Under the pieces are notes generated by a model. That model saw only the letters and a program-made list of their open reading frames with translations, did no database searches and had not been told where the DNA came from. A stretch of 64,000 nucleotides of DNA, from the UHGV virus genome UHGV-1343746. The stretch is one strand, 5' to 3'. Positions 2,664-64,000 of the stretch are shown piece after piece. Numbering within the stretch: position 1 is the stretch's first letter; each line of letters opens with the position of its first letter. The position numbers and the translations under genes are program-made. Origin of the DNA: a virus.

Positions 2664-3434
2664 TTATAGATTGATAATGGTTTTAAGTTTACTCTCTAAC
2701 TCTTCCATCGTTCCGTTATTCTGGATAATATCACGGGAGAAGTTAGTGGAGATACCACGTTCAGAGCTATGGGAAGCCACCTGAGTAGCATCTTTTCTTG
2801 TAATCTCAATTATCTGGCTATCGTAGCTTTGAAGGAACTCAGCTTCAATATCAAACCTTAAATCACATATCAGTGCAATACCTATGTGACTTTTCTTAAC
2901 GCAATCTCCATAGAATTTTTCAATACGTTCTGCCAAATCTGTAATCCAGAAACGCTCTCCAAGAATTTTACGGATAACCTCACTACCCCAGACTTGCTGT
3001 ATTTGTCTTGAGGAAATCATATATTCATTTTTCAAACCAAGCTTTGTAAGCAATGTAGGTTTACCAACTTTCTTTAACTCTTTGATAAGCCTGTCTGTGA
3101 TTTCCCCACAAAGTTTTGCATCTTCATGGATGCCCTTACTTTTCATGTTTAGCTGGAAAGCCCATGCCACACGGGAGTTAAGATTGTCAAAATCTAAGCT
3201 AAACTTTTTAGGTGTTTCTTTCGTATCACCATACAGGTCTTGCCAGTTCAAGTCAAAGATAAATCCAGCAGTTGCTTTTAAGTTATCGGCAAACGCAAAC
3301 ACTTTAACAGTGTATCCAGCCTCATTCAATAGATTTTTTACAATGCTGCAAGATGTATCCTTTCCAGAACGAGCTTTTCCAGTAAATGCAATAATACTTT
3401 TCATATCGTTCACTCCATAATAAAAAGCCCCCAA
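2664..3434 (-). CDS. deoxynucleoside monophosphate kinase-like P-loop protein
   Basis: N-terminal P-loop IIAFTGKARSGKDT resembling phage dNMP kinases. Confidence 0.6.
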   Translation of the reverse strand: MGAFYYGVNDMKSIIAFTGKARSGKDTSCSIVKNLLNEAGYTVKVFAFADNLKATAGFIFDLNWQDLYGDTKETPKKFSLDFDNLNSRVAWAFQLNMKSKGIHEDAKLCGEITDRLIKELKKVGKPTLLTKLGLKNEYMISSRQIQQVWGSEVIRKILGERFWITDLAERIEKFYGDCVKKSHIGIALICDLRFDIEAEFLQSYDSQIIEITRKDATQVASHSSERGISTNFSRDIIQNNGTMEELESKLKTIINL

Positions 3435-40185: not shown

Positions 40186-40261
40186 TGGAGTATCGGAAGG
40201 GACTCGAACCCTCATAAACCTGTTTTGCAGACAGGCACATAACCATTTCTGACACCGACAC
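40186..40261 (-). tRNA. tRNA-Cys(GCA)
   Basis: manual fold: sense T-loop TTCGAGT, anticodon loop CTGCAAA, 7-bp acceptor stem, CCA encoded. Confidence 0.7.
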
Positions 40262-40267
40262 ATAATT

Positions 40268-40360
40268 TGGAGGAAGATACCAGACTTGAACTGGTACGCC
40301 GATTTCTCGGTTACTGGCAGTTTAGCAAACTGCTCCCTTACCTTTTAGGGTTAATCTTCC
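40268..40360 (-). tRNA. tRNA-Ser(GCU), long variable arm
   Basis: T-loop TTCAAGT; anticodon loop TTGCTAA; ~93 nt with variable-arm hairpin. Confidence 0.7.
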
Positions 40361-40361
40361 A

Positions 40362-41096
40362 TTATTTGTTCAGAGCTTCTTTCATCTCTGGAGTTGCGAT
40401 AGTATCAATCACACCAGTTTTACATGAATCATCAAACCAGCTTGGTAGAACATTCGCAAGGAAACCATTAATATTTGTTTTCAGGTATTCTGCAATCAGT
40501 GCTGCTTCATCTGCAATCATCTGAGTTACTTCATTAGCATATGCAGTAATCTTTGCAATACCCTCATTAATCGCTGTAACGGCCTGTGTAGCGAGTTCAG
40601 AGATTGTATCTAGTCCTTGGTCGATTGCATCTTGCAAATCGCTTAGAACGCTATTTACAGCGTCTATGGAGGTATTAATCAAATCCATCGCTTTATTACC
40701 GTACTCGGTAGCTACGCCCATGATACCGCTAAACGGTGTACATCCAACCTGTTCACCTGCTGCTCCCATAACGTTAGAGTAACCTTTAGCTACTTGCATA
40801 CGTTGTGAAAACTCATCTACAGACTTTTGTCCATACTCAGTGAGTGTACTTGTCGTTGAAGTTGTACTTCCAAGGCTTGTTGTGAAGCTTCCTAATAAGG
40901 CTGTTGTCAGTCCAGCAGCAACTAAAATCTGTTGTGTGGCTGGGTCTGTTACAGAACTAATTGAGTTAACTAATGATTGAGAGGCAGCTATAGTACCACC
41001 AAGAACTGCTGCACCAGTAATAAGAGGGTTTGAAAAACCATTACCAGTTTTAAGGAGATTAAAAATCTCTTTACTTTGTTCTGTCATCTCTTTCAT
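40362..41096 (-). CDS. Ala/Ser/Thr-rich protein with hydrophobic segments, embedded in tRNA cluster
   Basis: track ORF trimmed to ATG at 41096 because the listed N-terminus overlaps tRNA-Phe. Confidence 0.45.
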   Translation of the reverse strand: MKEMTEQSKEIFNLLKTGNGFSNPLITGAAVLGGTIAASQSLVNSISSVTDPATQQILVAAGLTTALLGSFTTSLGSTTSTTSTLTEYGQKSVDEFSQRMQVAKGYSNVMGAAGEQVGCTPFSGIMGVATEYGNKAMDLINTSIDAVNSVLSDLQDAIDQGLDTISELATQAVTAINEGIAKITAYANEVTQMIADEAALIAEYLKTNINGFLANVLPSWFDDSCKTGVIDTIATPEMKEALNK

Positions 41097-41114
41097 TATG
41101 CACCTATAAAGTTG

Positions 41115-41189
41115 GTAGCCCATCGGGATTTGAACCCTGTTCTCATGTTTTTCAGACACGCGCTTTAACCATATAAGCTAATTGAGCTA
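41115..41189 (-). tRNA. tRNA-Phe(GAA)
   Basis: T-loop TTCAAAT; anticodon loop CTGAAAA; acceptor TAGCTCA/TGGGCTA. Confidence 0.65.
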
Positions 41190-41195
41190 TTAAAT

Positions 41196-41272
41196 TGGGG
41201 TGACCTACGGGAATCGAACCCGTATAGACCATGTTCACAGCATGGGTCATTATCCATTTATGATAAGGCCAC
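41196..41272 (-). tRNA. tRNA-His(GUG)
   Basis: T-loop TTCGATT; anticodon loop CTGTGAA; CCA encoded. Confidence 0.7.
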
Positions 41273-41303
41273 ATTTAAGGACTCTCGTAAGAACCCTTAG
41301 AAG

Positions 41304-41379
41304 TGGCAGCAGTATAAGGATTTGAACCTTAATCTTTCAGCTTCAGAGGCTGGAGCATTGCCAGTTATGCTATACTGCT
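41304..41379 (-). tRNA. tRNA-Gln(CUG)
   Basis: T-loop TTCAAAT; anticodon loop CTCTGAA. Confidence 0.65.
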
Positions 41380-41385
41380 AATATT

Positions 41386-41456
41386 TGGTACTCCATATCG
41401 GATTCGAACCGATACATAACACAGATTTTAAATCTGGCCTCTCTGCCAATTGGAGT
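41386..41456 (-). tRNA. atypical tRNA-like gene, candidate anticodon UAA
   Basis: good T-arm and 6/7 acceptor stem, but only ~68 nt without CCA; anticodon region is palindrome CAGATTTTAAATCTG; truncated D-arm. Confidence 0.4.
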
Positions 41457-41466
41457 AATGGAGCAT

Positions 41467-41541
41467 TGGCGGGGGATGATGGAATTGAACCATCTTCTTC
41501 GATTTCAAAGACCGAGGTTTTAACCTTGTAAACTAATCCCC
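41467..41541 (-). tRNA. tRNA-Gln(UUG)
   Basis: T-loop TTCAATT; anticodon loop CTTTGAA; positions 1-72 mismatched. Confidence 0.6.
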
Positions 41542-41550
41542 TATTAAATT

Positions 41551-41627
41551 TGGTGCAGAATAGAGGATTCGAACCCCTAACAAACAACTTCGTAGATTGC
41601 TGTTCTATCCATTTGAACTAATTCTGC
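41551..41627 (-). tRNA. tRNA-Arg(ACG)
   Basis: T-loop TTCGAAT; anticodon loop CTACGAA; perfect acceptor stem. Confidence 0.7.
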
Positions 41628-41628
41628 A

Positions 41629-41871
41629 TTATCCGATAAGGACACCATAAAGTTTTAACTCTTCATTAGTGTCTCTTCTGCTTAAGACTGACTCTCTAAA
41701 ATCTTTAGCAATATTCTTTCGAGATTCCTGTCTAGCTTTCTTCTTATCTCTTCTGAGAAAGCGTCTACGATGGTCTGTACGCCACTTGTAGTAATCTTCT
41801 TCACCATCGTGAGAAGCGCAGCAGCCACAACTTGCAATTTCAACTTTACCATGTCTACCATAAGGCTTCAT
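41629..41871 (-). CDS. small basic Cys-containing protein embedded in tRNA cluster
   Basis: 80 aa, Arg/Lys-rich with CGCC...H cluster. Confidence 0.4.
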   Translation of the reverse strand: MKPYGRHGKVEIASCGCCASHDGEEDYYKWRTDHRRRFLRRDKKKARQESRKNIAKDFRESVLSRRDTNEELKLYGVLIG

Positions 41872-41887
41872 AGGAATCTCCTAAAAT

Positions 41888-41965
41888 TGGTGTTCCAAGA
41901 CGGATTCGAACCGTCACTAATACAAGGTTTGAGCTTGCATCCTCTACCAATTGGGATACTGGAAC
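41888..41965 (-). tRNA. tRNA with anticodon CAA (Leu-type) but short variable arm
   Basis: T-loop TTCGAAT; anticodon loop CTCAAAC; ~75 nt without CCA. Confidence 0.55.
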
Positions 41966-41966
41966 T

Positions 41967-42040
41967 TGGTACTCGCTGAAGGACTTGAACCTTCTTCACC
42001 AACTTGTAAGGATGGGGCTTTACCATATAAACTAAGCGAG
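41967..42040 (-). tRNA. tRNA-Val(UAC)
   Basis: T-loop TTCAAGT; anticodon loop CTTACAA. Confidence 0.6.
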
Positions 42041-42136
42041 CTTTGAAGAGGTCTGAAGCTGTGCCGCTAACTCAACTCCGTGGAATTTGTTACGGTCTTC
42101 AGTTGACTCAAGCGGTCTTTCACTTGACCTCAAAAT

Positions 42137-42212
42137 TGGTGCTCCCACAAGGATTCGAACCCTGATAAGTTGCTTACAAGGCAACCGTAATAGCCAATTA
42201 TACGATAAGAGC
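42137..42212 (-). tRNA. tRNA-Thr(UGU)
   Basis: T-loop TTCGAAT; anticodon stem GTTGC/GCAAC with loop CTTGTAA. Confidence 0.7.
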
Positions 42213-42218
42213 ATTGTT

Positions 42219-42293
42219 TGGAGCATCCAGAGGGAATCGAACCCTCAACCTCAGTTTGGAAGACTGTAATTTTCCCATTTAAACTATGGATGC
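42219..42293 (-). tRNA. tRNA-Gly(UCC)
   Basis: T-loop TTCGATT; anticodon loop CTTCCAA; perfect acceptor stem. Confidence 0.7.
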
Positions 42294-42299
42294 ACTAAT

Positions 42300-42375
42300 T
42301 GGTGGAGAAGCAGGGAATTGAACCCTGTACTTAAGTTTGCAAAACTTATGTTTTAACCATGTAAACTACATCCCC
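42300..42375 (-). tRNA. tRNA-Ala(UGC)
   Basis: T-loop TTCAATT; anticodon loop TTTGCAA; G3-U70 wobble pair present. Confidence 0.7.
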
Positions 42376-42381
42376 ATTGTT

Positions 42382-42457
42382 TGGTACAGGTGGAGTGAAT
42401 TGAACCCATCGTCTTACTGATTAAGAGTCAGCCGCATAACCATTTTGCTACACCTGC
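42382..42457 (-). tRNA. tRNA-Lys(CUU)
   Basis: anticodon loop CTCTTAA; acceptor stem good; T-stem weakly paired. Confidence 0.55.
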
Positions 42458-42464
42458 ATTAATT

Positions 42465-42542
42465 TGGTAGGAGACAAGGGATTCGAACCCTCAAACACCA
42501 ACTTCTAAGGATGGTAGGTTTACCAATTACCGTCAATCTCCC
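42465..42542 (-). tRNA. tRNA with anticodon UAG (Leu-type) but short variable arm
   Basis: T-loop TTCGAAT; anticodon loop CTTAGAA; ~75 nt without CCA. Confidence 0.55.
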
Positions 42543-42797
42543 ATTAAATCTTTGTAGAGAACTGCTAAGACGCCAAAGCAACAATGGTATCAAATGCCTT
42601 AACAATTCTCTAAAAAGACCTATTGGCCTTTGCGTAGTCTTCTTTAATCCGGTGACTAGAACCTTTGGAGAGCTTGATATTATCTCTTCTCCGTGACACC
42701 TACTAGGTGCTTTGTCAGTGCCGTGTACGCCAATACACGAAGAGGAAACCTGAAACACTTGCCCGAACAGCGAGTCTCAGCTTTAAATCTTATTAGG

Positions 42798-42881
42798 CGG
42801 TAGATAAAGGAGTCGAACCCTCACCGTATCTCTACAATGGCAACTGTTTTCAAGACAGTTTGGCTTCCATTAGCCGCTACC
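42798..42881 (-). tRNA. tRNA-Ser(UGA), long variable arm
   Basis: T-loop TTCGACT; anticodon stem ACTGT/ACAGT with loop CTTGAAA; ~84 nt, no CCA encoded. Confidence 0.6.
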
Positions 42882-42898
42882 TACCCCTAATAAGACTT

Positions 42899-42981
42899 TG
42901 GCATGGGACGGAGGATTCGAACCCCTTTGAGTAAGTTTTGGAGGCTTACGCACATGCCTTAGTGTCTTAACATCGTCCCAT
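42899..42981 (-). tRNA. tRNA, long (about 83 nt), anticodon unresolved (CCA/Trp candidate)
   Basis: T-loop TTCGAAT; perfect acceptor match GTCCCAT; internal fold ambiguous. Confidence 0.5.
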
Positions 42982-43146
42982 ACTATAATTCGAAGCTTAC
43001 CCTGTTATCTCAACACTGTCAAGCTTCTTCTCAGATTATTTACATGTTCTGGAAAACATGAGATACAGACCACCTCCTTATGAGATTGACTTTTTCAAGT
43101 CAATGCGGAGACCCATAAAGGTCGTCATAGTAATCTGCTAACTAAC

Positions 43147-43223
43147 TGGCACACCCTACAGGATTCGAACCTGTAACTGACGGTTTAGAAGACCGTTGCT
43201 CTATCCGTTTGAACTAAGGGTGC
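43147..43223 (-). tRNA. tRNA-Arg(UCU)
   Basis: T-loop TTCGAAT; anticodon stem ACGGT/ACCGT with loop CTTCTAA. Confidence 0.7.
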
Positions 43224-43500
43224 ATTAACATTTTAAAGAGCACTCATTGCATTTAAGCCAAGCCCCATAAGGGATGCTCTTTAGAATGTTGCCCACTTTA
43301 TTAATCATACCGTGGGCTAGTACGCCAAATTCTTTAACAGGGAGTTGGAATACCCTGCTGGTGTTTAGCCTATTAAGCTACTGCCAGAAAAACATTATCG
43401 TTTGCATTTATTTTTAAGTTTTTAAAATAGACGCTACGCTAACGAAAACTAAGGTTATCTTAAAGTGGTCACATCTGAATGTCAACAACTTTATGAAATT

Positions 43501-43576
43501 TGGTACTGGTAGGTGGAATCGAACCACCGATATTCCCTTATCAGGGGAGTGTTATAACCTTCTTAACTATACCAGC
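43501..43576 (-). tRNA. tRNA-Ile(GAU)
   Basis: T-loop TTCGATT; anticodon loop CTGATAA. Confidence 0.65.
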
Positions 43577-43578
43577 AT

Positions 43579-43655
43579 TGGAGGTTCAGGTGGGAATCGA
43601 ACCCACATTCATAGGGCTTATGAAACCCTTGCATTACCTTATCTGCGACTGAACC
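43579..43655 (-). tRNA. tRNA-Met(CAU)
   Basis: T-loop TTCGATT; anticodon loop TTCATAA with GGG/CCC stem; perfect acceptor stem. Confidence 0.65.
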
Positions 43656-55608: not shown

Positions 55609-55616
55609 AACTATAC

Positions 55617-55640
55617 AGCCCCTTAATTGGGGCTTTTTAT
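55617..55640 (+). terminator. rho-independent terminator
   Basis: AGCCCC-TTAATT-GGGGCT followed by TTTTTAT. Confidence 0.65.
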
Positions 55641-55655
55641 TGAGTAAAATTTACG

Positions 55656-55679
55656 AAATTTATAATTTTTATAAAATTT
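55656..55679. repeat. AT-rich palindrome AAATTTATAATTTTTATAAAATTT
   Basis: near-identical copy at 56119-56143. Confidence 0.5.
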
Positions 55680-55763
55680 GGGATTCACTCCGTTCATCTT
55701 GGGTCACCATGATATGTGATAAAATATCTATACCCTTCTAAACACCCTCTCTAAGCATCATCT

Positions 55764-55987
55764 CTATATAGTATTATATAGTATCTATATAGCCTCTTAG
55801 TACCTAAATAGTGCTCTCTATATAGCCCTCTATAAAGCCTTCTAAGCCTACCATTAATCAACCATATACAATCACCTTCCTAACCTCTTCCTAGCCCCTT
55901 AGAAGCTCCTATAGCCATCTTAATCTCTAGGTAAACGATAGTACCCTATATAGCAGAATCACTAGGTATTACTAAGCCTCTATATAG
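55764..55987. repeat. cluster of about six CTATATAG palindromic octamers
   Basis: CTATATAG at 55764, 55785, 55818, 55946, 55980 plus CTATAAAG variants. Confidence 0.55.
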
Positions 55988-56118
55988 ACTGTTATATAAC
56001 ACTAAACAGGTATTCCCTGTAAAGGCTTATCCTACAAGGTCTAACACGGTACTAACAAGGTCTCTTATAAGCCTGTTAATTCCTGTTTTATATAAGATAG
56101 TGTATAGATAGTTATTCA

Positions 56119-56143
56119 GAATTATAAAATTTTTATAAAATAG
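56119..56143. repeat. AT-rich palindrome, second copy
   Basis: GAATTATAAAATTTTTATAAAATAG. Confidence 0.5.
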
Positions 56144-56220
56144 ACTAGGTAGTGTTTATTTAGGGGTCTTTGGAGAATCTGAAAAATATCTACAGAGGGT
56201 GTATATCTGCTTGGTAGCCC

Positions 56221-56740
56221 TTAACAGCCCTGTAACATCCCCTTTGCAGTTTATTAAAATATCATTAACAAGCTCTTAACAACTCTCTCAAGCCTTTAAC
56301 ATCTCTTCAAAGTTCTTAACAGTTTCTTAACAGAACTAACAAGGGCTTAACAAGTCTGTAACATTACTAACAAGAGTCTAACAAGTTGCTTATAAGTTGC
56401 TAAATAGTTAAATCTTAAGAGTTATTTTGTTAAGATAATTAACAAGATGCTAACAAGTTCTAAACCTTTTTAACAAGCTATTAACATGGTCACTATCTCT
56501 TGGTCTATAGTTCCCTTCCCTTCTTAGTGATTCTCTTAAAAGCCCTCTTAAAAGCTCTGTATAGCTCTGTATAGCCTCTTCTAAGCTTCTCCCTAGTAAC
56601 TACACCCCAACTACCTGTATAGCTCTTTATAGGGCTTTCTAGGGGCTTATACAGGGACTTCAAAGAGTCTAACAAGCTTTTAACATACCTCTAACAAGGA
56701 TTTAACTGAGGCTTAACAAGTCTCGCTAGGGGCTAACAAG
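56221..56740. repeat. iteron-like array: about 20 copies of (C)TAACA(AG)
   Basis: CTTAACAAG/CTAACAAG/TTAACAT repeated at roughly 10-12 or 20-bp spacing. Confidence 0.55.
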
Positions 56741-56810
56741 TCCATAATAAGCATAACTATGTAGCATTTGTTAAGATTTTGTTAAGAGAATGTAAAGGGG
56801 GCTAACTTTT

Positions 56811-56865
56811 ACGTTACTTTTACGTTACTTTTACGTTACTTTTAAGCATCTTTTACGTTACTTTG
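56811..56865. repeat. tandem 11-mer ACGTTACTTTT, three perfect copies plus one displaced
   Basis: ACGTTACTTTT ACGTTACTTTT ACGTTACTTTT aagcatc TTTTACGTTACTTTG. Confidence 0.7.
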
Positions 56866-57191
56866 AAGACTCCATAACATTCTTTAAAGCTATTATCAAG
56901 CCCCTGTTTAACCATTCACAAGATTCTATCCAGCTTATAAGCTTACTCCCTTATAAGATTCTTTTAAGGCTCTAGAAAGCTCTATAAAGGGCTTTTAAGA
57001 AGTGGTTAATATGATTGCTTAAGATGAGATGATAAGCCCGTATAGAGCGTTATAGAGCGTTTTAGGGATTGCCCTTCCCTTTCGGGTTATGGGCTTATAT
57101 TTAAGTGGATTTGATAAGAGGATATAGAGTAAGCTATAGAGTTATTATTCTAAATGTATGGGATAGATTCTAGGAAGGTTTCTTTATAGAC

Positions 57192-57215
57192 GTAAAAAGC
57201 CCCATCTAAGGGGCT
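57192..57215 (-). terminator. rho-independent terminator for minus-strand small-gene block
   Basis: minus-strand AGCCCC-UUAGAU-GGGGCU followed by UUUUUAC. Confidence 0.6.
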
Positions 57216-57256
57216 GTAAAGGTGTCTGGGGCTATTTGCCCCGTTGCGGCGACTTG

Positions 57257-57508
57257 TTAGTTATTGAAGCCGTCAACTTCATAGTAAAGCGTGATAAGAG
57301 AATCACCCCAATAGTAAGAGGATACGCCATCCTTTAAGACTTCCTGTTTAGTTTCTTTCCAGAATGTTTCCGATGGGTTATAGTCCTGAATAGTTGCTTT
57401 TAGACACATATCAACCATGCCGAAAGCATCACCAGTGCCAACCATATCGAACTTAACATCTAATACATGGAAGCCAAAATTGTTAACAGTTGCGCGGATA
57501 GTAGCCAT
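57257..57508 (-). CDS. hypothetical small protein
   Basis: 83-aa ORF; conserved GGAGAATCTGAAAATG initiation region. Confidence 0.45.
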   Translation of the reverse strand: MATIRATVNNFGFHVLDVKFDMVGTGDAFGMVDMCLKATIQDYNPSETFWKETKQEVLKDGVSSYYWGDSLITLYYEVDGFNN

Positions 57509-57573
57509 TTTCAGATTCTCCAGTTTAGGAATTTAGGTTAGTGGGGAAGTCTCCCTCCCCGTTGAAAGTAATA
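57509..57573 (-). promoter_or_regulatory. upstream hairpin cassette, class II
   Basis: minus-strand GGGGAGGGAGACUUCCCC hairpin plus CUAAACUGGAGAAUCUGAAAAUG. Confidence 0.5.
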
Positions 57574-57837
57574 TTAATTCATTGCTGCATAAGTTGCAAG
57601 TCTTTTTTCATTGTATTTTGTAAGAATCTCACAAGATAAAACGTCATACTTTGCAACGGCTTCAGATTTAGTTAAACCGAAATGGCTTACAATTTCACCA
57701 TTCATGAATCCGACTACTTCATAAGATTCTGCGATGATTTCACCGTTGAACCAATCACTTTCAATACGTTTGCAAAGTTGGATATCTTCTTTGTCAGTAC
57801 CGATTTGTAACAGGATAGTGATTTCTTGATTATTCAT
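57574..57837 (-). CDS. hypothetical small protein
   Basis: 87-aa ORF preceded by class II cassette. Confidence 0.45.
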   Translation of the reverse strand: MNNQEITILLQIGTDKEDIQLCKRIESDWFNGEIIAESYEVVGFMNGEIVSHFGLTKSEAVAKYDVLSCEILTKYNEKRLATYAAMN

Positions 57838-57897
57838 TTTCTAGTCTCCAGTTTAGGATTGTTGGGGAAGGTCATTCCCTCCCCGTTGATAAGTACT
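57838..57897 (-). promoter_or_regulatory. upstream hairpin cassette, class II
   Basis: GGGGAAGGTCATTCCCTCCCCGTTGA on plus strand. Confidence 0.5.
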
Positions 57898-58425
57898 TTA
57901 CAGATTTATGATGATTTCGTCAAGGGAATTTTCTAAGTTTTTTAAAGATTGTTCGTAAAGCCTAATTCCCCTACTTAATGCTTCCCCTAACGTAATTTTA
58001 AATACAGTTGTTGGGTAGTCACTTGTAAAGATGTTTTCCACTTCATAGAGTGGGTATTGTTGGTTACCCGTTCCCATAGCATACATACCTGTATAGTGAA
58101 TTGCAATAAAAAGATTATGGGACTTAATAGAGCGCTCATAAGCCATTTTAAAGCGGTTTAACTCGTTTTTAGTTGCCTTAATAGCCATTTCGTGAATTTC
58201 TGCGACTATAGCCATATAATCATTCAGAATGAGAGAAATAGCCCCCATAAAGTTGTTGGCTGTTACCGCTTTTACATTTGGTCGGTGTACATAAAACTTC
58301 TTACCTTCCCCTTTTGTGATAACTGCAAAAACTTTGCTCTTTAAGGTAAATTCCCAAGTATCTTTACAAGGCTTGCTCATCACTTCACGGCTACGGATTG
58401 CATTAACAGCATTAAACTTATTCAT
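57898..58425 (-). CDS. hypothetical protein
   Basis: 175-aa ORF preceded by class II cassette. Confidence 0.45.
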   Translation of the reverse strand: MNKFNAVNAIRSREVMSKPCKDTWEFTLKSKVFAVITKGEGKKFYVHRPNVKAVTANNFMGAISLILNDYMAIVAEIHEMAIKATKNELNRFKMAYERSIKSHNLFIAIHYTGMYAMGTGNQQYPLYEVENIFTSDYPTTVFKITLGEALSRGIRLYEQSLKNLENSLDEIIINL

Positions 58426-58489
58426 TCTAGATTCTCCAGTTTAGGAATTTTGTTTAGTGGGGAAGTTTCCCTCCCCGTTGATGAATACT
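58426..58489 (-). promoter_or_regulatory. upstream hairpin cassette, class II
   Basis: GGGGAAGTTTCCCTCCCCGTTGATGAATACTTTAC on plus strand. Confidence 0.5.
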
Positions 58490-58630
58490 TTACTTGTTTT
58501 GATTCTGCATTGCAAGTAGTTTTTTATCAAAAACTTTATCTGAGATTTCACCAATGATGAGCATTGCTAATGGCAACACAACAGAAACAATCATACCGCA
58601 AAGGATAGGGTTTTTAATGATATCTAACAT
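58490..58630 (-). CDS. small hydrophobic protein (46 aa), absent from ORF track
   Basis: ATG at 58630 carries the same conserved initiation region; predicted single transmembrane segment. Confidence 0.4.
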   Translation of the reverse strand: MLDIIKNPILCGMIVSVVLPLAMLIIGEISDKVFDKKLLAMQNQNK

Positions 58631-58826
58631 TTAGTGATTCTCCAGTTTAGGAAGTTGCCTTTTGAAGATACTATATAGATATGATTAGACCTTTGCAAGT
58701 ACTTTTTACGCTTATCTATAAAGAATCTATTAAGTTAATCCCTTTTAGATAAACCCCCTCGAACAAAGTTACACTTGTCAAGGGGCATTGTCAATAGTTT
58801 TTCAAAAGATTTTTATAAGTTGTTGA

Positions 58827-59168
58827 TTAGCTTATAAAGATTTTTTCTGGCTTAACATAGGTTAATGACTGTTTTTTAAGCAAATCAGACCAAATGAGCG
58901 CGGCAATGTGACTATATCCCTTTTCTCTTAACTCCTGCATAGCTGATTTGCGAGTTTCGAAACGTGTAGCATAGTATTCAGTGTTAAGGGTAGTTTTATT
59001 CCCTTCATTGTCAACATGTACAATCTGCATCACTTGAAAGGGGCTTACATCTTCTCCCCTGTTCCATTGCTCAAAGTACTTGAGACACTGCATAGGTTTC
59101 ATTTTGTCGTTAACTTGGGTAGACCATGACGAATTTTCTTTATCGGTGATAATTGTTACATAGGCCAT
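58827..59168 (-). CDS. hypothetical protein
   Basis: 113-aa ORF preceded by class I cassette. Confidence 0.45.
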   Translation of the reverse strand: MAYVTIITDKENSSWSTQVNDKMKPMQCLKYFEQWNRGEDVSPFQVMQIVHVDNEGNKTTLNTEYYATRFETRKSAMQELREKGYSHIAALIWSDLLKKQSLTYVKPEKIFIS

Positions 59169-59253
59169 TTTCAGATTCTCCAGTTTAGGATTGTTGGTAA
59201 AGCTCTTTCTCTGGGGCTTAAGATACTAGCTTTTAAACCCCATGTAAAGCACT
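59169..59253 (-). promoter_or_regulatory. upstream hairpin cassette, class I
   Basis: plus-strand GGTAAAGCTCTTTCTCTGGGGCTTA...AAACCCCATGTAAAGCACTTTA. Confidence 0.5.
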
Positions 59254-59451
59254 TTAATAAATTCTATCCATCAGATTATTCACGGCCATAATTGCATTAT
59301 CTTTGAAGTGTGGATGACTGCTATTCTGTGAGAATAGTATTTCTCCATTGTATACTATTTTTAGGTCTATCTTTGAACCTTCCATGTTAAGGTTACACTC
59401 TACACCTTTTAAACACCACAAGGTAGAAAGTTTTTGCATCAGTGATAACAT
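59254..59451 (-). CDS. hypothetical small protein
   Basis: 65-aa ORF preceded by class I cassette. Confidence 0.4.
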   Translation of the reverse strand: MLSLMQKLSTLWCLKGVECNLNMEGSKIDLKIVYNGEILFSQNSSHPHFKDNAIMAVNNLMDRIY

Positions 59452-59542
59452 TTTAGATTCTCCAGTTTAGGATTGTTGGTAAAGCTCTTTATCTGGGGCT
59501 TATCTTATCTAACTATAAACCCCATGTAAAGCACTTTATTAG
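59452..59542 (-). promoter_or_regulatory. upstream hairpin cassette, class I
   Basis: GGTAAAGCTCTTTATCTGGGGCTTATCTTATCTAACTATAAACCCCATGTAAAGCACTTTATT. Confidence 0.5.
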
Positions 59543-59764
59543 TTATTTGTAGTAATAATATGTAAACTCATTTATCAGGCTTCCAGCCTCATCATTATAC
59601 TGCTTATGACTAGCCAGATAACCGCCATTAGCTAGAATTTCATCAATCAACTTTTTAGCGTCATCATTGGGAATTCTAACAGGGTTATTAAACGGTTGTA
59701 AATAGGTACGACGAACATTTGAGAATTTAAAATCAATGGTTTTTACGTTGAGGACTTGCAACAT
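59543..59764 (-). CDS. hypothetical small protein
   Basis: 73-aa ORF preceded by class III cassette. Confidence 0.45.
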   Translation of the reverse strand: MLQVLNVKTIDFKFSNVRRTYLQPFNNPVRIPNDDAKKLIDEILANGGYLASHKQYNDEAGSLINEFTYYYYK

Positions 59765-59848
59765 TTTTGAATCTCCAGTTTAGGATTGTTGGGGCTTCTA
59801 ACTTACCCCGTTGATGAGTACTCTACTGGTTTGCGTTTTCAGTGTCAA
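59765..59848 (-). promoter_or_regulatory. upstream hairpin cassette, class III
   Basis: GGGGCTTCTAACTTACCCCGTTGATGAGTACTCTAC. Confidence 0.5.
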
Positions 59849-60079
59849 CTACTTTTCTATAAGAATTTCATAATCACCATTCACACTATCAAAGTAAATG
59901 CCATAATCATCTTCTGATTTATAGTAGCACTGTATATCATCCGATGCTGGGTAGTCTTGCCTTGCTATCTGACAGGCAACAATAGCATTATTTTCGCTAC
60001 CTGTAAACTCTTCTAAACCTTTAAAGTTGCATTGTGAACCATTGCAGATAGATAGAATAAGATAGATTGTTGTAAGCAT
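59849..60079 (-). CDS. small secreted Cys-containing protein
   Basis: 76 aa; hydrophobic N-terminus MLTTIYLILSICNGSQC. Confidence 0.4.
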   Translation of the reverse strand: MLTTIYLILSICNGSQCNFKGLEEFTGSENNAIVACQIARQDYPASDDIQCYYKSEDDYGIYFDSVNGDYEILIEK

Positions 60080-60142
60080 CTTTTAAGCCTCTTGTAAGCC
60101 CCTATGCGGGGCTTTTCTAGTGAACTGGTATGATTCTATGGT

Positions 60143-60700
60143 TTATGCTGTTAAGTCGCTTATAGCCGTTTCTGTTACGTTGAATTGCATTGTGTCAAAG
60201 ATATCACAATATACATTGCTCATCTCATCGCTACGTTGGATTATTGCCACAATGTTGCGTAATTCATCCGGTATATAACCTAAGTTCCTATTATTCAGGT
60301 TAGGGACAAAGAAAGGCGCATACATAGCATTAAATTCAGTTGTGTAAACCTTTTTAATCCATTCTTTATCGAAATACTCTGTAAAGCTTGCTACGTCGCT
60401 CATGTTCTCACAGCTCCAGTCATCTTGTAATTCATCTTCTGGAATATCAAGTTCCAAGATAACAAGTTTTTGTGACTTCATTTGATAGGCTGCTGTAATG
60501 CTTGCACTGTCAAGCGCGTTTTTAATACCTTCATCTATGATTTGTTCGTCATCCAGATTTTCTACATCATAGAACTTGCTAACAGGGTAGACATAAAAAC
60601 ATCCATCCATATCAGAGCAATTCCAGACTCCTGATGGTTTATCACCGCCATTCATAAGGTTTACAAAGTTTTCTTGTGTAGTACCATGAAAGCATTTCAT
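60143..60700 (-). CDS. hypothetical acidic protein
   Basis: 185-aa ORF preceded by class I cassette. Confidence 0.45.
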   Translation of the reverse strand: MKCFHGTTQENFVNLMNGGDKPSGVWNCSDMDGCFYVYPVSKFYDVENLDDEQIIDEGIKNALDSASITAAYQMKSQKLVILELDIPEDELQDDWSCENMSDVASFTEYFDKEWIKKVYTTEFNAMYAPFFVPNLNNRNLGYIPDELRNIVAIIQRSDEMSNVYCDIFDTMQFNVTETAISDLTA

Positions 60701-60784
60701 TTTAGATTCTCCAGTTTAGGATTGTTGGTAAAGCTCTTTATCTGGGGCTTATCTTATCTAATTATAAACCCCATGTAAAGCACT
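60701..60784 (-). promoter_or_regulatory. upstream hairpin cassette, class I
   Basis: near-identical to 59452..59542. Confidence 0.5.
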
Positions 60785-61033
60785 TTATTTAGTTTTCTTT
60801 GTAAAGATTAGTTTAACGGCAACAGTTGGTAACTCTTCAATACTTGTGAACAAAGTCACTTTTTGAGTCTTGACATTATAGCCATACTTTGAACCATAAG
60901 CCGTAAAACGGTTTACAATGTAACTGTAAGTTTTTGCAGTGTTATCTGGCATATGGTATAAAAACGGCTTGCCAAGGTTATCAAGTTGTGTTAAGAGTCG
61001 GCAAGTGTCAGGGATATTCAACATATTAAACAT
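60785..61033 (-). CDS. hypothetical small protein
   Basis: 82-aa ORF preceded by class III cassette. Confidence 0.45.
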   Translation of the reverse strand: MFNMLNIPDTCRLLTQLDNLGKPFLYHMPDNTAKTYSYIVNRFTAYGSKYGYNVKTQKVTLFTSIEELPTVAVKLIFTKKTK

Positions 61034-61118
61034 TTTCAGATTCTCCAGTTTAGGATTGTTGGGGCTTCTAACTTACCCCGTTGATGAGTACTCTACTACT
61101 ATGCTTTTGCAATGTCAA
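61034..61118 (-). promoter_or_regulatory. upstream hairpin cassette, class III
   Basis: identical core to 59765..59848. Confidence 0.5.
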
Positions 61119-61526
61119 TCAAATCTCTGAATAAATTGCATCGCAGATTTCACGGAAAACTTCCACCGGTAAGTTACGCTGTAACCATGTTGCAAAGAAA
61201 TCAGCAATTGCAAAGTTTGCATCAAAATCAACACATAGCCACACTTTAACAGCAAATCTAAACATTTTCAAGTCAAGTTCTTTATTCATTACTTTTGACT
61301 TTGACAGCATTTCCTTCATCTCATATTGAGCACCGTCAATTATAGCTCCTGCTGCTACATCTTGCAAGGATTCTTTAAGCTGTTTTGTGTCTACTACTGC
61401 GCCCTGAATTTTACCGATGATATTATGTAGTGTTTCGTCTGGTGCTGCTGATGTTACAATGTTGATGCGGTTAATGGTCAAACGTGCTTTCAAAATTGCA
61501 ACTTCTTTGTGATTAACATTAGTCAT
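61119..61526 (-). CDS. hypothetical protein
   Basis: 135-aa ORF preceded by class I cassette. Confidence 0.45.
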   Translation of the reverse strand: MTNVNHKEVAILKARLTINRINIVTSAAPDETLHNIIGKIQGAVVDTKQLKESLQDVAAGAIIDGAQYEMKEMLSKSKVMNKELDLKMFRFAVKVWLCVDFDANFAIADFFATWLQRNLPVEVFREICDAIYSEI

Positions 61527-61615
61527 TTTCTAGTCTCCAGTTTAGGTTAGTTTTAGATAAATCTCTTTATCTGGGGCTATCTTAGCAACTTGATAACCCC
61601 ATGTAAAGCAATTTA
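61527..61615 (-). promoter_or_regulatory. upstream hairpin cassette, class I variant
   Basis: TCTTTATCTGGGGCTATCTTAGCAACTTGATAACCCCATGTAAAGCAATTTATT. Confidence 0.5.
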
Positions 61616-61888
61616 TTAGACTAAATACAATTTTTTACCACTAACAATAATGTAACTTACGCCGCTATTACTGTAAACATCTTGATAAATTCTGCGTAAC
61701 TTTCCAAGGTATCGAACTTTCCAAGATGTAGGAATTTTCTTTCCATATCCTGTGGCGGTTTTTTGTAGACCTGCTACCTGCCAATCTAATAGGTGCTGTT
61801 CTGCTCTTAACTCTTCAAAGTTTAATACACCGTCTATATAGTGTTTTAAAGTTACGTTCAAAGTTCGACCGTCATTAGTAGTATACAT
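61616..61888 (-). CDS. hypothetical small protein
   Basis: 90-aa ORF preceded by class III cassette. Confidence 0.45.
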   Translation of the reverse strand: MYTTNDGRTLNVTLKHYIDGVLNFEELRAEQHLLDWQVAGLQKTATGYGKKIPTSWKVRYLGKLRRIYQDVYSNSGVSYIIVSGKKLYLV

Positions 61889-61947
61889 TTTCAGATTCTC
61901 CAGTTTAGGATTGTTGGGGCTTCTATCTTGCCCCGTTGATGAATACT
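61889..61947 (-). promoter_or_regulatory. upstream hairpin cassette, class III
   Basis: GGGGCTTCTATCTTGCCCCGTTGATGAATACTTTAC. Confidence 0.5.
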
Positions 61948-62295
61948 TTACTTGTTTTGATTCTGCATTGCAAGCTCTTTTTTATTAATTTCTTGCGCTA
62001 TCACGATATAATAATCTTTCAGGTTTATATCTTGAATTGACTCAAGAAGTATGTCATAATCACTGATTAATTTAAAATCACCGTCTAGGATGTTATCAAT
62101 CCGGTATGTTTCTGCTTTGAATCGAAAGCTCATCTCTAAGCGTTTCAATTGTTCTAAGCTTAAACGCTCTAGAAAGCCCCGTACAAGGTTTATTTTTAAA
62201 TCCCTTGTAAGTGCCTTATTAGCTATACTGTGCGCTTGTAAGGCTTTATAGAGCGCCATAATAGAGATAAAAATTGCAACGTATGTGATTAACAT
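61948..62295 (-). CDS. hypothetical protein with N-terminal hydrophobic segment
   Basis: 115 aa; MLITYVAIFISIMALY. Confidence 0.4.
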   Translation of the reverse strand: MLITYVAIFISIMALYKALQAHSIANKALTRDLKINLVRGFLERLSLEQLKRLEMSFRFKAETYRIDNILDGDFKLISDYDILLESIQDINLKDYYIVIAQEINKKELAMQNQNK

Positions 62296-62585
62296 TTGTT
62301 TTTACCTTTGTGGAATAGTTTACCAGTGTGACTAATTTCATAAGAGTCTATCATATCTTTTGTGGATTTAATAGATGATTTATTAGCATTATCATAGATA
62401 TCTATCTGAAGCAATGGTTTTTTGTATTCCTTACAAAAGTTCCATACACAAATCACAACTTCCCTTTTGTCAATCTTTCCGTGATACCATTCCACAGATT
62501 CACTTTGACGTCGCATAGATTCAATAAACTGAATGTTATTTAATAACTGACTCAATTTAGTTCTAACGTTTGCGGCAATAAACAT
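62289..62585 (-). CDS. hypothetical small protein
   Basis: 98-aa ORF preceded by class I cassette. Confidence 0.45.
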   Translation of the reverse strand: MFIAANVRTKLSQLLNNIQFIESMRRQSESVEWYHGKIDKREVVICVWNFCKEYKKPLLQIDIYDNANKSSIKSTKDMIDSYEISHTGKLFHKGKNKC

Positions 62586-62669
62586 TTTAGATTCTCCAGT
62601 TTAGGATTGTTGGTAAAGCTCTTTATCTGGGGCTATCTTAGCAACTTGATAACCCCATGTAAAGCACTT
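62586..62669 (-). promoter_or_regulatory. upstream hairpin cassette, class I
   Basis: same core as 61527..61615. Confidence 0.5.
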
Positions 62670-63182
62670 TTAGATATTAAAGATATTCATAACAGAGTCT
62701 TTCAAGGCTTCTAAACGTTCCATTACTTCAGATTCTCCATCGGAGTTAGAAACTTCCTCTTCTAATCGTGAATCTAAATCTTCCCCGTCAAGATAACACC
62801 AATCGAAACCATAAGCAAGTGAAAAGCTATTTAATACCGTATTACCTTCTTTATCTTCTACCTTTGCAAATAGCACATAGCTGTTAGCTTCTAAATCTCT
62901 TTGTAATTCATCTTGTAAGCTCTTGTAAGCCTCTATAGATGGATTTTCGCGGCCTTGTTTAGCATAATCACTCATCAATTGGGAAAGGCTGTAATGCTGT
63001 GGAATTGCATATTTGTACCCGTTACGCTCTGGATTTTTAAGTTTGATTGTAACCCCGCCTTTGTGCTCATCGGTAAACTTCCAATTTTCCACACAATGGG
63101 ATGCTTCACAAATATTAACAGCTTCATAGATGATAGTGAATTTTTCTTTTTGAACTTCAAAGGTAGCTTCAACGTATGACAT
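62670..63182 (-). CDS. hypothetical acidic protein
   Basis: 170-aa ORF preceded by class I cassette. Confidence 0.45.
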   Translation of the reverse strand: MSYVEATFEVQKEKFTIIYEAVNICEASHCVENWKFTDEHKGGVTIKLKNPERNGYKYAIPQHYSLSQLMSDYAKQGRENPSIEAYKSLQDELQRDLEANSYVLFAKVEDKEGNTVLNSFSLAYGFDWCYLDGEDLDSRLEEEVSNSDGESEVMERLEALKDSVMNIFNI

Positions 63183-63274
63183 ATTAAGATTCTCCAGTTT
63201 AGGACTATTGGTTAGTAAAGCTCTTTATCTGGGGCTTATACTAGCAACTTATAAACCCCATGTAAAGCACTTTA
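63183..63274 (-). promoter_or_regulatory. upstream hairpin cassette, class I
   Basis: GGTTAGTAAAGCTCTTTATCTGGGGCTTATACTAGCAACTTATAAACCCCATGTAAAGCACTTTATC. Confidence 0.5.
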
Positions 63275-63532
63275 TCAGATTAAATTGTCAGTTAATGACA
63301 AGTGCATTTTATAACCTTTCTTCGTGTAGACATTAGTTCTACCGATTGCCCTTACACCTTTGAAAAGGTCATAGGAGCTACGTTTTAAAGTAATTTCCTT
63401 ATCACATTTTACGCCCCATCTTACAGCAGATTCTTTTCCGTTGTCAACCACTTTACCATTTAATTTTTTAGCAGTTGCGCGAGCGTCATCACGAGATTTT
63501 GCAGATACAATGATGTTTTTGATAGTAGCCAT
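63275..63532 (-). CDS. hypothetical small basic protein
   Basis: 85-aa ORF preceded by class I cassette. Confidence 0.45.
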   Translation of the reverse strand: MATIKNIIVSAKSRDDARATAKKLNGKVVDNGKESAVRWGVKCDKEITLKRSSYDLFKGVRAIGRTNVYTKKGYKMHLSLTDNLI

Positions 63533-63623
63533 TTTTGATACTCCAGTTTAGGTTATTGTTTGGTAAAGCTCTTTATCTGGGGCTTATCTTATCTAACTAT
63601 AAACCCCATGTAAAGGACTTTAT
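63533..63623 (-). promoter_or_regulatory. upstream hairpin cassette, class I
   Basis: near-identical to 59452..59542. Confidence 0.5.
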
Positions 63624-63941
63624 TTAGTTAATTTTGAAAACTGTAACGTAGCCGTCACTACCAATAGTTTGAGATACTCCAGCTTTCTCTACATCATACC
63701 CCATTTTATCAAGATGGTACATTGCATCTTCATACCCATATTTACCGCCTTGATAGCGTCTTTTTTCACATCTTATCACAGTTTTACCACGTCCTGCAAT
63801 AGCATTTATGATAGCTTTTTCACCGGATAATGTACCGTCAAGCATAGTAGCTTTGTAGTGGTTAATACGGTTACCATTAACATCATACTTAAAATTGTAA
63901 GCGTGAACAACAATTATTTTTCCTTTGAAGTTTTCTTTCAT
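63624..63941 (-). CDS. hypothetical protein
   Basis: 105-aa ORF. Confidence 0.45.
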   Translation of the reverse strand: MKENFKGKIIVVHAYNFKYDVNGNRINHYKATMLDGTLSGEKAIINAIAGRGKTVIRCEKRRYQGGKYGYEDAMYHLDKMGYDVEKAGVSQTIGSDGYVTVFKIN

Positions 63942-64000
63942 AGTTTCCTCTAAGATACTACGAAAGTTTTCTTTGTTGATAAATTTAGGCGCACGATATT

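Follow-up and report, generated by a model that had tools for sequence, protein, structure and literature searches.

The DNA analyzed here is a 64,000-nt stretch of virus genome UHGV-1343746, referred to below as the window, and derives from a Felix O1-like myovirus of the Ounavirinae, genus Mooglevirus. On its minus strand, between positions 57506 and 63623, it carries a block of small genes whose intergenic regions are built from a family of repeated cassettes, most of them combining a GC-clamped hairpin with a fixed translation initiation region. The 6.7 kb around the block share 97% identity with Shigella phage Sf13 and 84-88% identity with Citrobacter phages Moogle and Mordin, and upstream of the block comes the part of these genomes that holds the rII, spanin and macro-domain genes. 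The block comprises 17 open reading frames (ORFs), labeled A to Q. Gene A is truncated by the end of the window (63624-64000), its PHROG profile aligning from position 22 and its Sf13 homolog measuring 126 aa, and because Sf13 presents a cassette for gene A (class I, as defined below) and another one (type B) past position 64000, the block extends beyond the window. At the opposite end, after gene Q, the block is closed by a canonical intrinsic terminator, the sole minus-strand intrinsic terminator called by the scan.

The Pfam and PHROG scan covered 10 of the 17 block proteins, namely the ten largest (A-G, I, M and O). No significant Pfam match was obtained for these ten proteins, and all of them belong to PHROGs of unknown function, which leaves without support the designation of the block as host-takeover genes in a preliminary description of this DNA made from the sequence alone. 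The sole hint regarding their function comes from Felix O1, where reverse transcription PCR (RT-PCR) found ORFs 16, 20, 21 and 22, the homologs of genes C, G, M and O, to be maximally expressed at 5 min post-infection (PMC3185647).

Repeat anatomy of the intergenic regions

Direct-repeat families of 44-108 nt connect the intergenic regions of the block. Within them, the leader sequence CCTAAACTGGAG occurs in 14 exact copies (0 mismatches), all on the minus strand between positions 57518 and 63552 and none elsewhere in the window, whereas shuffled sequences contained a mean of 0.36 and a maximum of 3 copies. The 12-nt core of the leader is identical in 14/14 units, eight of which extend it to the longer string AACAATCCTAAACTGGAG, and each unit ends in GGAG-N8-9-ATG. 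A hairpin with GGGG…CCCC arms accompanies the leader at 13 genes, where three stem classes can be told apart: class I (seven genes), class II, with the stem GGGGAGGG…CCCC (three genes), and class III, with the stem GGGG(T/C)AAG…GCCCC (three genes). The 14th gene, gene N, has the leader only. Every hairpin is situated between a stop codon and the ribosome binding site (RBS) of the next gene, and an A-rich stretch, (A)ATAAAGTGC, which holds or follows the upstream stop codon, sits before the TTTACA hexamer of the cassettes. Predicted folding energies of the 13 hairpins lie between -6.5 and -15 kcal/mol, and their z-scores relative to shuffled sequences between -1.8 and -3.7.

Intrinsic terminators are recognized by a GC-rich stem-loop followed by a U-run, and this second element is missing from all 13 cassette hairpins, which are followed by 0-2 T in the next 10 nt; the terminator after gene Q has TTTTT. 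The same search in more than 100 homologous hairpin copies likewise returned no U-run (0-2 T within 10 nt). Comparison of positions 56800-64000 with Rfam 15 (E≤1) yielded three sub-threshold chance matches, with E-values of 0.28-0.77, and at the gathering score only tRNAs were recognized over the whole window. The cassette repeats are thus confirmed as real and well above chance. Of the properties first ascribed to them, the near-invariance of the initiation region and the lack of U-runs were both borne out, while the assignment of a cassette to each of 14 genes stands for the shared leader and has to be reduced to 13 genes for the hairpin.

Predicted promoters and two cassette architectures

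A consensus scan located TTTACA-17-TAAGAT/TAGTAT/TATCTT at 7/7 class I sites and TTGACA-17-TAGAGT, TTGACG-17-TAAAGT and TTGCAA-17-TATAGT at other units. Reading of the coordinates showed that all 14 units present -35 and -10 hexamers of the sigma-70 type separated by a 17-nt spacer, followed 7-8 nt further on by a CA dinucleotide (Table 1). Each of the 14 units is therefore described here as carrying a putative sigma-70-type promoter, the activity and start site of which are predictions from motif and spacing. A promoter had previously been suspected in the 196-nt gap that separates genes M and N and nowhere else, a view that is superseded by the fixed geometry observed in every unit. Given a promoter in all 14 units, a stack of 14 transcription units describes the block better than a single polycistron that is subsequently processed.

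The position of the hairpin relative to the promoter defines two architectures. In class I (type A), the hairpin starts one base past the -35 hexamer and its right arm overlaps the final bases of the -10 hexamer. Because the predicted start is the A directly after CCCC, the class I hairpin is absent from the mRNA of its own unit. In classes II and III (type B, six units), the promoter has the form TTGnnn-17-TAnnnT and the hairpin begins exactly 10 nt past the -10 hexamer, at about +3 of the predicted start. Since the hairpin holds the same position relative to the -10 hexamer in both, classes II and III constitute one architecture with different stems; the division into three classes is correct for the stem sequences, but not for the layout. 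In four type B units (F, O, P and Q), the -35 hexamer and the spacer lie within the last codons of the upstream gene, and the TAA stop codon of that gene provides the first three bases of the -10 hexamer. Protein E (115 aa) and protein N (46 aa), which are otherwise unrelated, share the C-terminus LAMQNQNK because the -35 hexamer and spacer of the next cassette are coding, and exchange of cassettes would for the same reason swap C-terminal tails too. The two LAMQNQNK sites are at 61945-61990 and 58487-58532 on the minus strand.

Table 1. Coordinates of the cassettes and associated elements of the small-gene block. All features are on the minus strand. -35, -10, +1 and hairpin entries are predictions from sequence. 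SD, Shine-Dalgarno sequence.
Feature	Class	Span	-35	-10	Hairpin	Predicted +1	SD	ATG	Remarks
Gene B (85 aa)	I	63530-63623	TTTACA 63614-63609	TAAGAT 63591-63586	63607-63579	A 63578	GGAG 63544-63541	63532	
Gene C (170 aa)	I	63180-63274	63266-63261	TAGTAT 63243-63238	63259-63231	63230	63195-63192	63182	
Gene D (98 aa)	I	62583-62669	62663-62658	TAAGAT 62640-62635	62656-62629	62628		62585	28-nt hairpin variant GGGGTTATC…GATAGCCCC
Gene F (90 aa)	Type B (III)	61886-61973	TTGCAA 61973-61968	TAAAGT 61950-61945	61934-61916	61937	61901-61898	61888	-35 and spacer within last codons of gene E; TAA of -10 is gene E stop
Gene G (135 aa)	I	61524-61615	61607-61602	TAAGAT 61584-61579	61600-61573	61572		61526	Leader variant GATAAAGAGATTTATC, potential 6-bp stem
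Gene H (82 aa)	Type B (III)	61031-61118	TTGACA 61118-61113	TAGAGT 61095-61090	61079-61061	61082		61033	
Gene I (185 aa)	I	60698-60784	60779-60774	TAAGAT 60756-60751	60772-60744	60743		60700	
Gene K (73 aa)	Type B (III)	59762-59848	TTGACA 59848-59843	TAGAGT 59825-59820	59809-59791	59812		59764	
Gene L (65 aa)	I	59449-59542	59530-59525	TAAGAT 59507-59502	59523-59495	59494		59451	
Gene M (113 aa)	I	59166-59253	59248-59243	TATCTT 59225-59220	59241-59213	59212		59168	Hairpin GGGGTTTAA…TTAAGCCCC
Gene N (46 aa)	Hairpin-less	58628-58698	TTGCAA 58698-58693	TATAGT 58675-58670		58663	58643-58640	58630	17-nt spacer; common RBS module 58640-58651
Gene O (175 aa)	Type B (II)	58423-58515	TTGCAA 58515-58510	TAAAGT 58492-58487	58476-58459	58479		58425	-35 within last codons of gene N; TAA of -10 is gene N stop
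Gene P (87 aa)	Type B (II)	57835-57923	TTGACG 57923-57918	TAAAGT 57900-57895	57884-57864	57887		57837	Hairpin of 8 bp including one G·U; TAA of -10 is gene O stop
Gene Q (83 aa)	Type B (II)	57506-57599	TTGCAA 57599-57594	TAATAT 57576-57571	57560-57543	57563		57508	TAA of -10 is gene P stop
Conserved non-coding element		58699-58826							Approximately 130 nt, between genes M and N
Intrinsic terminator		57215-57198							AGCCCCTTAGATGGGGCT then TTTTT; closes block after gene Q

Conservation and stem covariation among the Ounavirinae

Retrieved Ounavirinae loci supplied 69 distinct copies of class I and 43 of type B for comparison. Among class I copies, TTTACA is present in 69/69 and a TAnnnT hexamer follows at 17-18 nt in 69/69, the conserved TA of this -10 hexamer lying in a hairpin loop whose neighboring bases otherwise vary. 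Among type B copies, TTGnnn is present in 42/43 (the remaining one has TAGACA), and both the 17-nt spacer with TAnnnT and the start of the hairpin exactly 10 nt after the -10 hexamer are found in 43/43.

The class I stem consists of 9 bp, positions 10-11 being unpaired. Double compensatory changes were identified at position 7 (TA 50, AT 18), position 8 (AT 49, TA 18) and position 9 (TA 23, CG 16, AT 16). For this analysis, stem arms were anchored at GGGG/CCCC and assessed with permutation and slide controls of their own; a MAFFT alignment of the class I cores was dropped for pair counting, as it aligns the -10 hexamer at the cost of displacing the right arm in the 28-nt variants. At the variable positions, 97.2% of cells are paired, versus 74.3±3.1% when arms are permuted (none of 2000 permutations came up to this value) and 29-46% in shifted registers. 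Pairing amounts to 98.5% on the sense strand versus 89.2% on the antisense strand, a difference due to T·G wobbles, which predominate at position 5, with G·T pairs also occurring in the stems of type B. The coexistence of several stem variants in one genome, together with these wobbles, indicates a structure formed by sense-strand RNA (or single-stranded DNA) rather than a duplex site for one protein.

A BLAST search with one cassette matched 288 GenBank phage records, essentially all of them Ounavirinae and including Erwinia phages, with no T4-type phage among the matches. The anatomy of the cassettes is kept across all Ounavirinae genera. In IMG/VR, the class I motif is confined to viral contigs of 54-90 kb and the type B motif to contigs of 51-94 kb, and a search of 185,579 bacterial and archaeal genomes returned no class I motif.

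A direct repeat also flanks the class I hairpin. Its upstream copy, ATAAAG(T)GCTTTAC, covers the stop codon and the -35 hexamer, and its downstream copy, ATAAAG(A)GCTTTAC, occupies approximately +3 to +16 in the predicted mRNA. Both copies are near-palindromic, and the downstream one is almost invariant in the subfamily. A reading of these flanking palindromes (TAAAGnGCTTTA) as RNA hairpins found no support, the common variant having an A·C mismatch and the class I leader folding no better than shuffled sequences (z-score of 0.05); they show hardly any variation across copies on which covariation could be tested.

Exchange of cassette-plus-gene units

The gene order A to Q forms a backbone conserved from Mooglevirus to Felix O1, and the differences between genomes consist of whole cassette-plus-gene units. 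Moogle is devoid of A, B, H, K, L and N, Mordin is devoid of L and has one additional gene, gene B is duplicated in one relative, and Felix O1 retains C, D, E, F, G, M, O and Q. When the block was aligned by BLAST to Moogle, Mordin, SUSP2 and Felix O1, the ends of the aligned blocks fell nearly all inside cassettes, and adjacent blocks overlapped in the subject by 27-31 nt, which correspond to the common RBS module. Orthologs may moreover be preceded by different cassettes: genes I, K and M alternate between class I and type B among phages, and gene F is found with another hairpin type at 91-97% protein identity. The cassette of gene K has a -10 hexamer and hairpin identical to those of the gene H cassette and different from those at the same site of Sf13, which is 97% identical, indicating recent gene conversion.

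Empty cassettes fused to one another, …AAAATG|CTTTACATGGGG… and …GAGCTTTACCAA|CTTTACATGGGG…, are present in two relatives and look like footprints of unequal crossing-over between cassettes. In one retrieved locus (L004, approximately 6870-6960), a complete class I cassette runs through its ATG straight into the next CTTTACA beside the duplicated gene B, and in Mordin (L001, approximately 2937-3001) two class I cassettes are fused at the GCTTTAC repeat. With 30-60 nt of near-identical sequence, each cassette is a probable substrate for homologous recombination and gene conversion. The modular shuffling originally proposed for the block is therefore upheld by the breakpoints inside cassettes and by the swaps of cassette type between orthologs. 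Overall, the evidence for the predicted promoter and recombination functions of the cassettes is strong, and purely computational.

The intergenic gap between genes M and N

The 196-nt gap at 58631-58826 had been described as lacking a cassette and as a possible location for an internal promoter. It contains no hairpin cassette at these coordinates and presents two promoter-like sites, but it does carry the RBS module common to all units. This module and the predicted promoter of gene N (TTGCAA-17-TATAGT, 58698-58670) are preceded by a conserved non-coding element. In it, a CCCCTTGA…TCGAGGGG stem surrounds the promoter-like site TTGACA-17-TAACTT (of the form TAnnTT), and a long hairpin with imperfect pairing, TTATCTA…TAGATAA, comes next. 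The gap contains another TTGACA, which was discarded as a promoter candidate since no TAnnnT is present at 16-18 nt from it. The element is 79-93% identical across the Ounavirinae down to Felix O1, above the identity of the flanking genes, and it shows no conserved ORF, no U-run and no covariation. Its consensus fold has 26 pairs (-22.75 kcal/mol) and zero compensatory pairs, a result that is uninformative because the element is almost invariant. It could represent a small RNA or an operator region.

Comparison with promoter early stem-loops and other known systems

Promoter early stem-loops (PeSLs) are composite intergenic elements of the ORFan-rich hyperplastic regions of the T4-type phages RB49/phi1, T4/PST and KVP40/nt-1 (Arbiol et al. 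2010, PMC2839356; Comeau et al. 2014, PMC4122927). They comprise, in this order, a stop codon in an AT-rich stretch, sigma-70 -35 and -10 boxes, a stem-loop that is often GGGG…CCCC, an SD sequence and an ATG, and the stem-loop may be placed between the boxes, over a box or just past the -10 box (PMC2839356). The PeSLs of RB49 are very strong promoters, and they recombine to generate indels and mini-circles (PMC2839356). In T4/PST, the consensus of the PeSL promoters is TTTACW-N17-TAYWAT (PMC4122927), which is that of the class I promoter.

Side-by-side comparison with actual RB49 PeSLs sustains the resemblance to T4-type cassettes that had been noticed at the outset. As in PeSLs, the units are intergenic and located in an ORFan-rich hyperplastic region whose content varies among relatives by whole units, with indels between related phages bounded by cassettes, and they are composed of an A-rich stop-codon stretch, sigma-70 boxes about 17 nt apart, a stem-loop at a defined position, and an SD sequence with ATG. 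The PeSL extracted from RB49 genes 227/228 reads TAAAAAGTAG-TTGACA-…GGGGGTAG-TAAGAT-ACTCCC-ATCGAAAC…AGGAGAATCAAAATG and contains short motifs resembling those of the block; the similar motifs of RB49 PeSLs are AAAGTG ahead of the -35 hexamer, the -10 hexamer TAAGAT, CATCAA/CATCGA near the start, and GGAGAATCAAAATG. Unlike PeSLs, however, the units belong to the Ounavirinae and not to the Straboviridae, without BLAST-detectable homology to T4-type phages. They are also far more uniform, in type B the hairpin comes after the predicted start and not before it, and four type B units have their -35 hexamer and spacer inside the upstream ORF, with a stop codon opening the -10 hexamer. Promoter, terminator and mini-circle activities have been measured for PeSLs. 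With all the features that define PeSLs at the sequence level present, the cassettes are best described as the putative Ounavirinae counterpart of PeSLs.

No paper linking PeSLs to the Ounavirinae was found in the searchable literature. Both the 57-bp class I unit and the 39-bp type B promoter appear as "direct repeats" in the paper on Felix O1, and they are absent from its predicted promoters (PMC3185647). Similarly, the wV8 record annotates the repeats as DR_1-DR_9, which the wV8 paper does not discuss, the Mordin record annotates a 14-bp repeat, and one paper counts the Ounavirinae cassette sites within generic BPROM totals.

Related arrangements were also observed outside the block. In the rIIA-rIIB intergenic region of Felix O1 (retrieved locus L003, approximately 2290-2370), the sequence TAAAGTGC-TTGACA-AGGGGCTTTGAAGCCCCT-TAGAAT lies upstream of rIIB, and a GGGG…CCCC hairpin fills the spacer, which is the commonest layout of RB49-type PeSLs; cassette-like promoters are hence not limited to the ORFan block. 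Salmonella phage GE_vB_MG, an rV5-like member of the Vequintavirinae (retrieved locus L049, approximately 520-625), harbors a partial homolog of gene C preceded by TTGACG-17-TACTAT, then …ATCA-GGGCG…CGCCC, an SD sequence and an ATG, which means that the layout of promoter and 5' hairpin occurs also outside Ounavirinae and T4-like phages. As a test of transfer between phage families, T4-type homologs of block ORFans were sought with two proteins, and none was seen; the 172-kb match obtained belongs to the rV5-like Vequintavirinae.

Several other known systems share part of these features. The 5' untranslated region of Escherichia coli ompA begins with a 5'-terminal stem-loop that Emory, Bouvet and Belasco reportedly described in 1992 as an mRNA stabilizer, and a stable hairpin near the 5' end of an mRNA blocks 5'-end-dependent decay by RNase E/RppH. 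The type B hairpin is likewise located about 3 nt from the predicted 5' end, but type B hairpins are shorter (5-8 bp) and are found also at the 3' side of upstream read-through RNA. As with the morons of lambdoid phages, in which promoter, gene and terminator are inserted together between other genes, accessory genes without known function are gained and lost as self-contained expression units. Morons have unrelated flanks and canonical terminators and are thought to spread by illegitimate recombination (PMC2839356), whereas the flanks in the block form a repeated family that supplies homology for exchange. Integron cassettes and their attC sites also constitute arrays of single ORFs, variable in gene content and parted by imperfect hairpin repeats; in contrast to integrons, the block has no integrase, each unit has its own putative promoter, and crossovers fall in a homologous 27-31-nt segment, not at a defined cleavage point. 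Repetitive extragenic palindromes and bacterial interspersed mosaic elements (REP/BIME) and the Correia elements of Neisseria are short repeated intergenic hairpins that can carry promoter parts and that act on mRNA ends, but they are dispersed and chromosomal, unlike the class I motif with its absence from the bacterial and archaeal genomes searched.

Interpretation of the cassettes and alternative explanations

Taken together, we consider it probable that the block is an early hyperplastic region in which nearly every small ORFan forms its own expression unit, driven by a composite cassette. This reading is based on the repeat anatomy, the conservation of promoter motifs, stem covariation, strand asymmetry, the lack of U-runs and the location of breakpoints in cassettes, from which we infer promoter activity, start sites and RNA stabilization or attenuation. 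Early in infection, unmodified host RNA polymerase would read the A-rich stretch and the sigma-70 -35 and -10 hexamers of each cassette. The cassette would thus provide a promoter, a GC-clamped stem-loop, a C(-1)A(+1) start and an essentially unstructured fixed leader ending in CCTAAACTGGAG-N8-9-ATG. The type A stem-loop would be found in RNA only at the 3' side of read-through transcripts coming from upstream units, while type B mRNAs would open with a 5'-terminal stem-loop about 3 nt past the predicted start. We read the stem-loops as sense-strand RNA structures that act at transcript ends, and not as protein-binding sites in DNA. By analogy with ompA, there is perhaps an even chance that the type B stem-loop is a protective 5' hairpin against 5'-end-dependent decay. 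An equally balanced proposal is that both types serve as a 3' barrier or partial attenuator of read-through RNA, which would insulate the stacked units without full termination. Homologous recombination between cassettes would then delete, duplicate and insert ORFans or provide them with another promoter.

Several observations weigh against this interpretation. In the semi-quantitative RT-PCR of Felix O1, ORFs 17, 19 and 23, the homologs of genes D, F and Q, were maximally expressed at 25 min (PMC3185647). Transcript mapping (transcription start sites or RNA-seq) for any Ounavirinae phage was not found in the searchable literature, which leaves the use of the promoters, their start sites and the RNA ends at the level of prediction. 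The fixed 10-nt spacing of type B could stem from common descent and not from selection, and the counts of covarying pairs do not represent independent events, because the copies compared include paralogs as well as orthologs. A conserved 16-nt element, GATAAAGAGCTTTACC, at +2 to +17 of class I directly repeats the motif that covers the -35 hexamer, and the model of a promoter followed by an RBS gives no account of it. Finally, the hairpins may terminate transcription more than assumed, by analogy with the one PeSL GGGG…CCCC stem-loop that proved a strong terminator, reducing downstream lacZ as much as rrnB T1 (PMC2839356).

That last observation speaks for the model of the PeSL authors, according to which the stem-loops are efficient terminators or attenuators, each gene is transcribed almost only from its own promoter, and transcription would not build up along the block. 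The invariable location of the hairpins between a stop codon and the next RBS suits this model, and with 14 co-directional promoters and one canonical terminator some damping of read-through seems necessary. We nevertheless regard the model as possible but clearly less probable than not, given the scarcity of T after 13/13 stems and in more than 100 homologous copies. Full termination at the cassette hairpins is unlikely because the phage uses a textbook hairpin with a U-run where the block ends, and because a terminator at approximately +3 to +21 would abort the type B transcripts themselves.

The preliminary description instead envisaged a single early polycistron, transcribed from promoters upstream or in the gap, in which the hairpins are RNase III/RNase E processing or regulatory sites and the cassettes are not promoters. 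Both the lack of U-runs and the AU-rich single-stranded leader after each stem, a typical context for RNase E, are compatible with processing, and the sense-strand-specific wobbles show selection on structure at the RNA level. A fixed 17-18-nt geometry between the -35 hexamer and TAnnnT (69/69 and 43/43) would be superfluous at a processing site, however, and RNase III substrates usually need about two helical turns (approximately 20 bp), whereas the stems here have 5-9 bp, too short for this enzyme. RB49 PeSLs of like anatomy are very strong promoters (PMC2839356). The polycistron model is considered improbable, and its RNase III component unlikely.

Elements acting in DNA, whether as an operator at which a phage protein turns off early promoters or as an attC-like recombination site for site-specific shuffling, would explain the inverted repeats and the 14-nt direct repeats. 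ATAAAG(T/A)GCTTTAC occurs on both sides of the class I hairpin, each copy palindromic, one fused cassette of Mordin is joined exactly at the direct repeats, and the PeSL authors speculated about a recombination protein binding GGGG…CCCC (PMC2839356). On the other hand, multiple compensated stem variants per genome fit base-pairing and not recognition by a single protein, T·G wobbles spoil the dyad symmetry of a duplex, most breakpoints fall in the identical 27-31-nt RBS module, as expected from plain homologous recombination, and no recombinase could be linked to the block among the ten scanned proteins, which have no significant Pfam match. This explanation is hence deemed very unlikely. The same low expectation applies to a bolder version, in which class I, with its 29-nt inverted repeat carrying the -10 hexamer, the flank supplying the -35 hexamer and the 14-nt direct repeats ATAAAGnGCTTTAC, would be an actively mobile capture element of virulent phages, belonging to an integrase-independent or unrecognized site-specific system. 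It is just as doubtful that, by analogy with integron attC sites or miniature inverted-repeat transposable elements (MITEs), single-stranded DNA folding would give rise to ORFan mini-circles and to gene movement between phage families. Nor do we find it at all probable that the promoter-hairpin of the rV5-like gene C homolog and the motif likeness with RB49 would reflect transfer and not convergence. Least credible of all is the notion that the cassettes are passive leftovers of serial duplication of one upstream region, with no selected function for the hairpin, for although the copies are highly similar, gene conversion is evident and similarity alone is no proof of function, the anatomy is kept in all Ounavirinae genera including Erwinia phages, pairing has been retained by compensatory changes while flanking ORFs diverged to 50-75% protein identity, and the motif is absent from the bacterial and archaeal genomes and present only on viral contigs of Ounavirinae size.

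Cassette-free genes and other features of the window

Two block genes are not preceded by a cassette: gene E (115 aa, 61948-62295), which overlaps gene D, and gene J (76 aa, 59849-60079). Gene J has its own SD sequence, AGAGG, and is preceded at 60089-60117 by the hairpin AAGCCCCGCATAGGGGCTT, which on the plus (antisense) strand is followed by TTTTC and looks like a terminator for antisense transcription within the block.

Beyond the end of the block, 1.65 kb (55610-57256) without any ORF longer than 56 aa lie between two convergent terminator hairpins (55611-55639 and 57193-57221). This stretch is dense in short repeats, including TTAACAAG/CTAACAAG-type and CTCTATATAG motifs and five tandem 11-bp ACTTTTACGTT units at 56805-56875, and it is conserved and unannotated in 257 Ounavirinae records. 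Since two records start inside it, near window position 56800, it may hold a genome terminus or replication origin. Further away, 26 tRNA genes were predicted with ARAGORN on the minus strand at 40186-45351, 24 of them confirmed by Rfam, as is typical of Felix O1-like genomes.

Implications for the Ounavirinae

Cassettes of the PeSL type had previously been unreported for Felix O1-like phages, the concept having so far been specific to T4-like phages, and although no new principle is involved, their recognition corrects the annotation of Felix O1-type genomes, which show these sites as direct repeats only and report few promoters in the region. The Ounavirinae system is very regular: its 14 consecutive units have the same leader and show two placements of the hairpin, one unit without a hairpin serves as a natural control, and both compensatory changes and swaps can be followed in hundreds of sequenced relatives. 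The block therefore constitutes a natural system in which to study the role of a stem-loop inside or just past a promoter. For the engineering of Felix O1-like therapeutic phages, the cassettes represent standard parts as well as recombination sites that can be predicted. Should the predictions prove right, cassettes of the PeSL type would not be peculiar to T4-like phages, and would instead be a general means by which virulent enterobacterial myoviruses of unrelated lineages express their accessory ORFans, insulate them and shuffle them.

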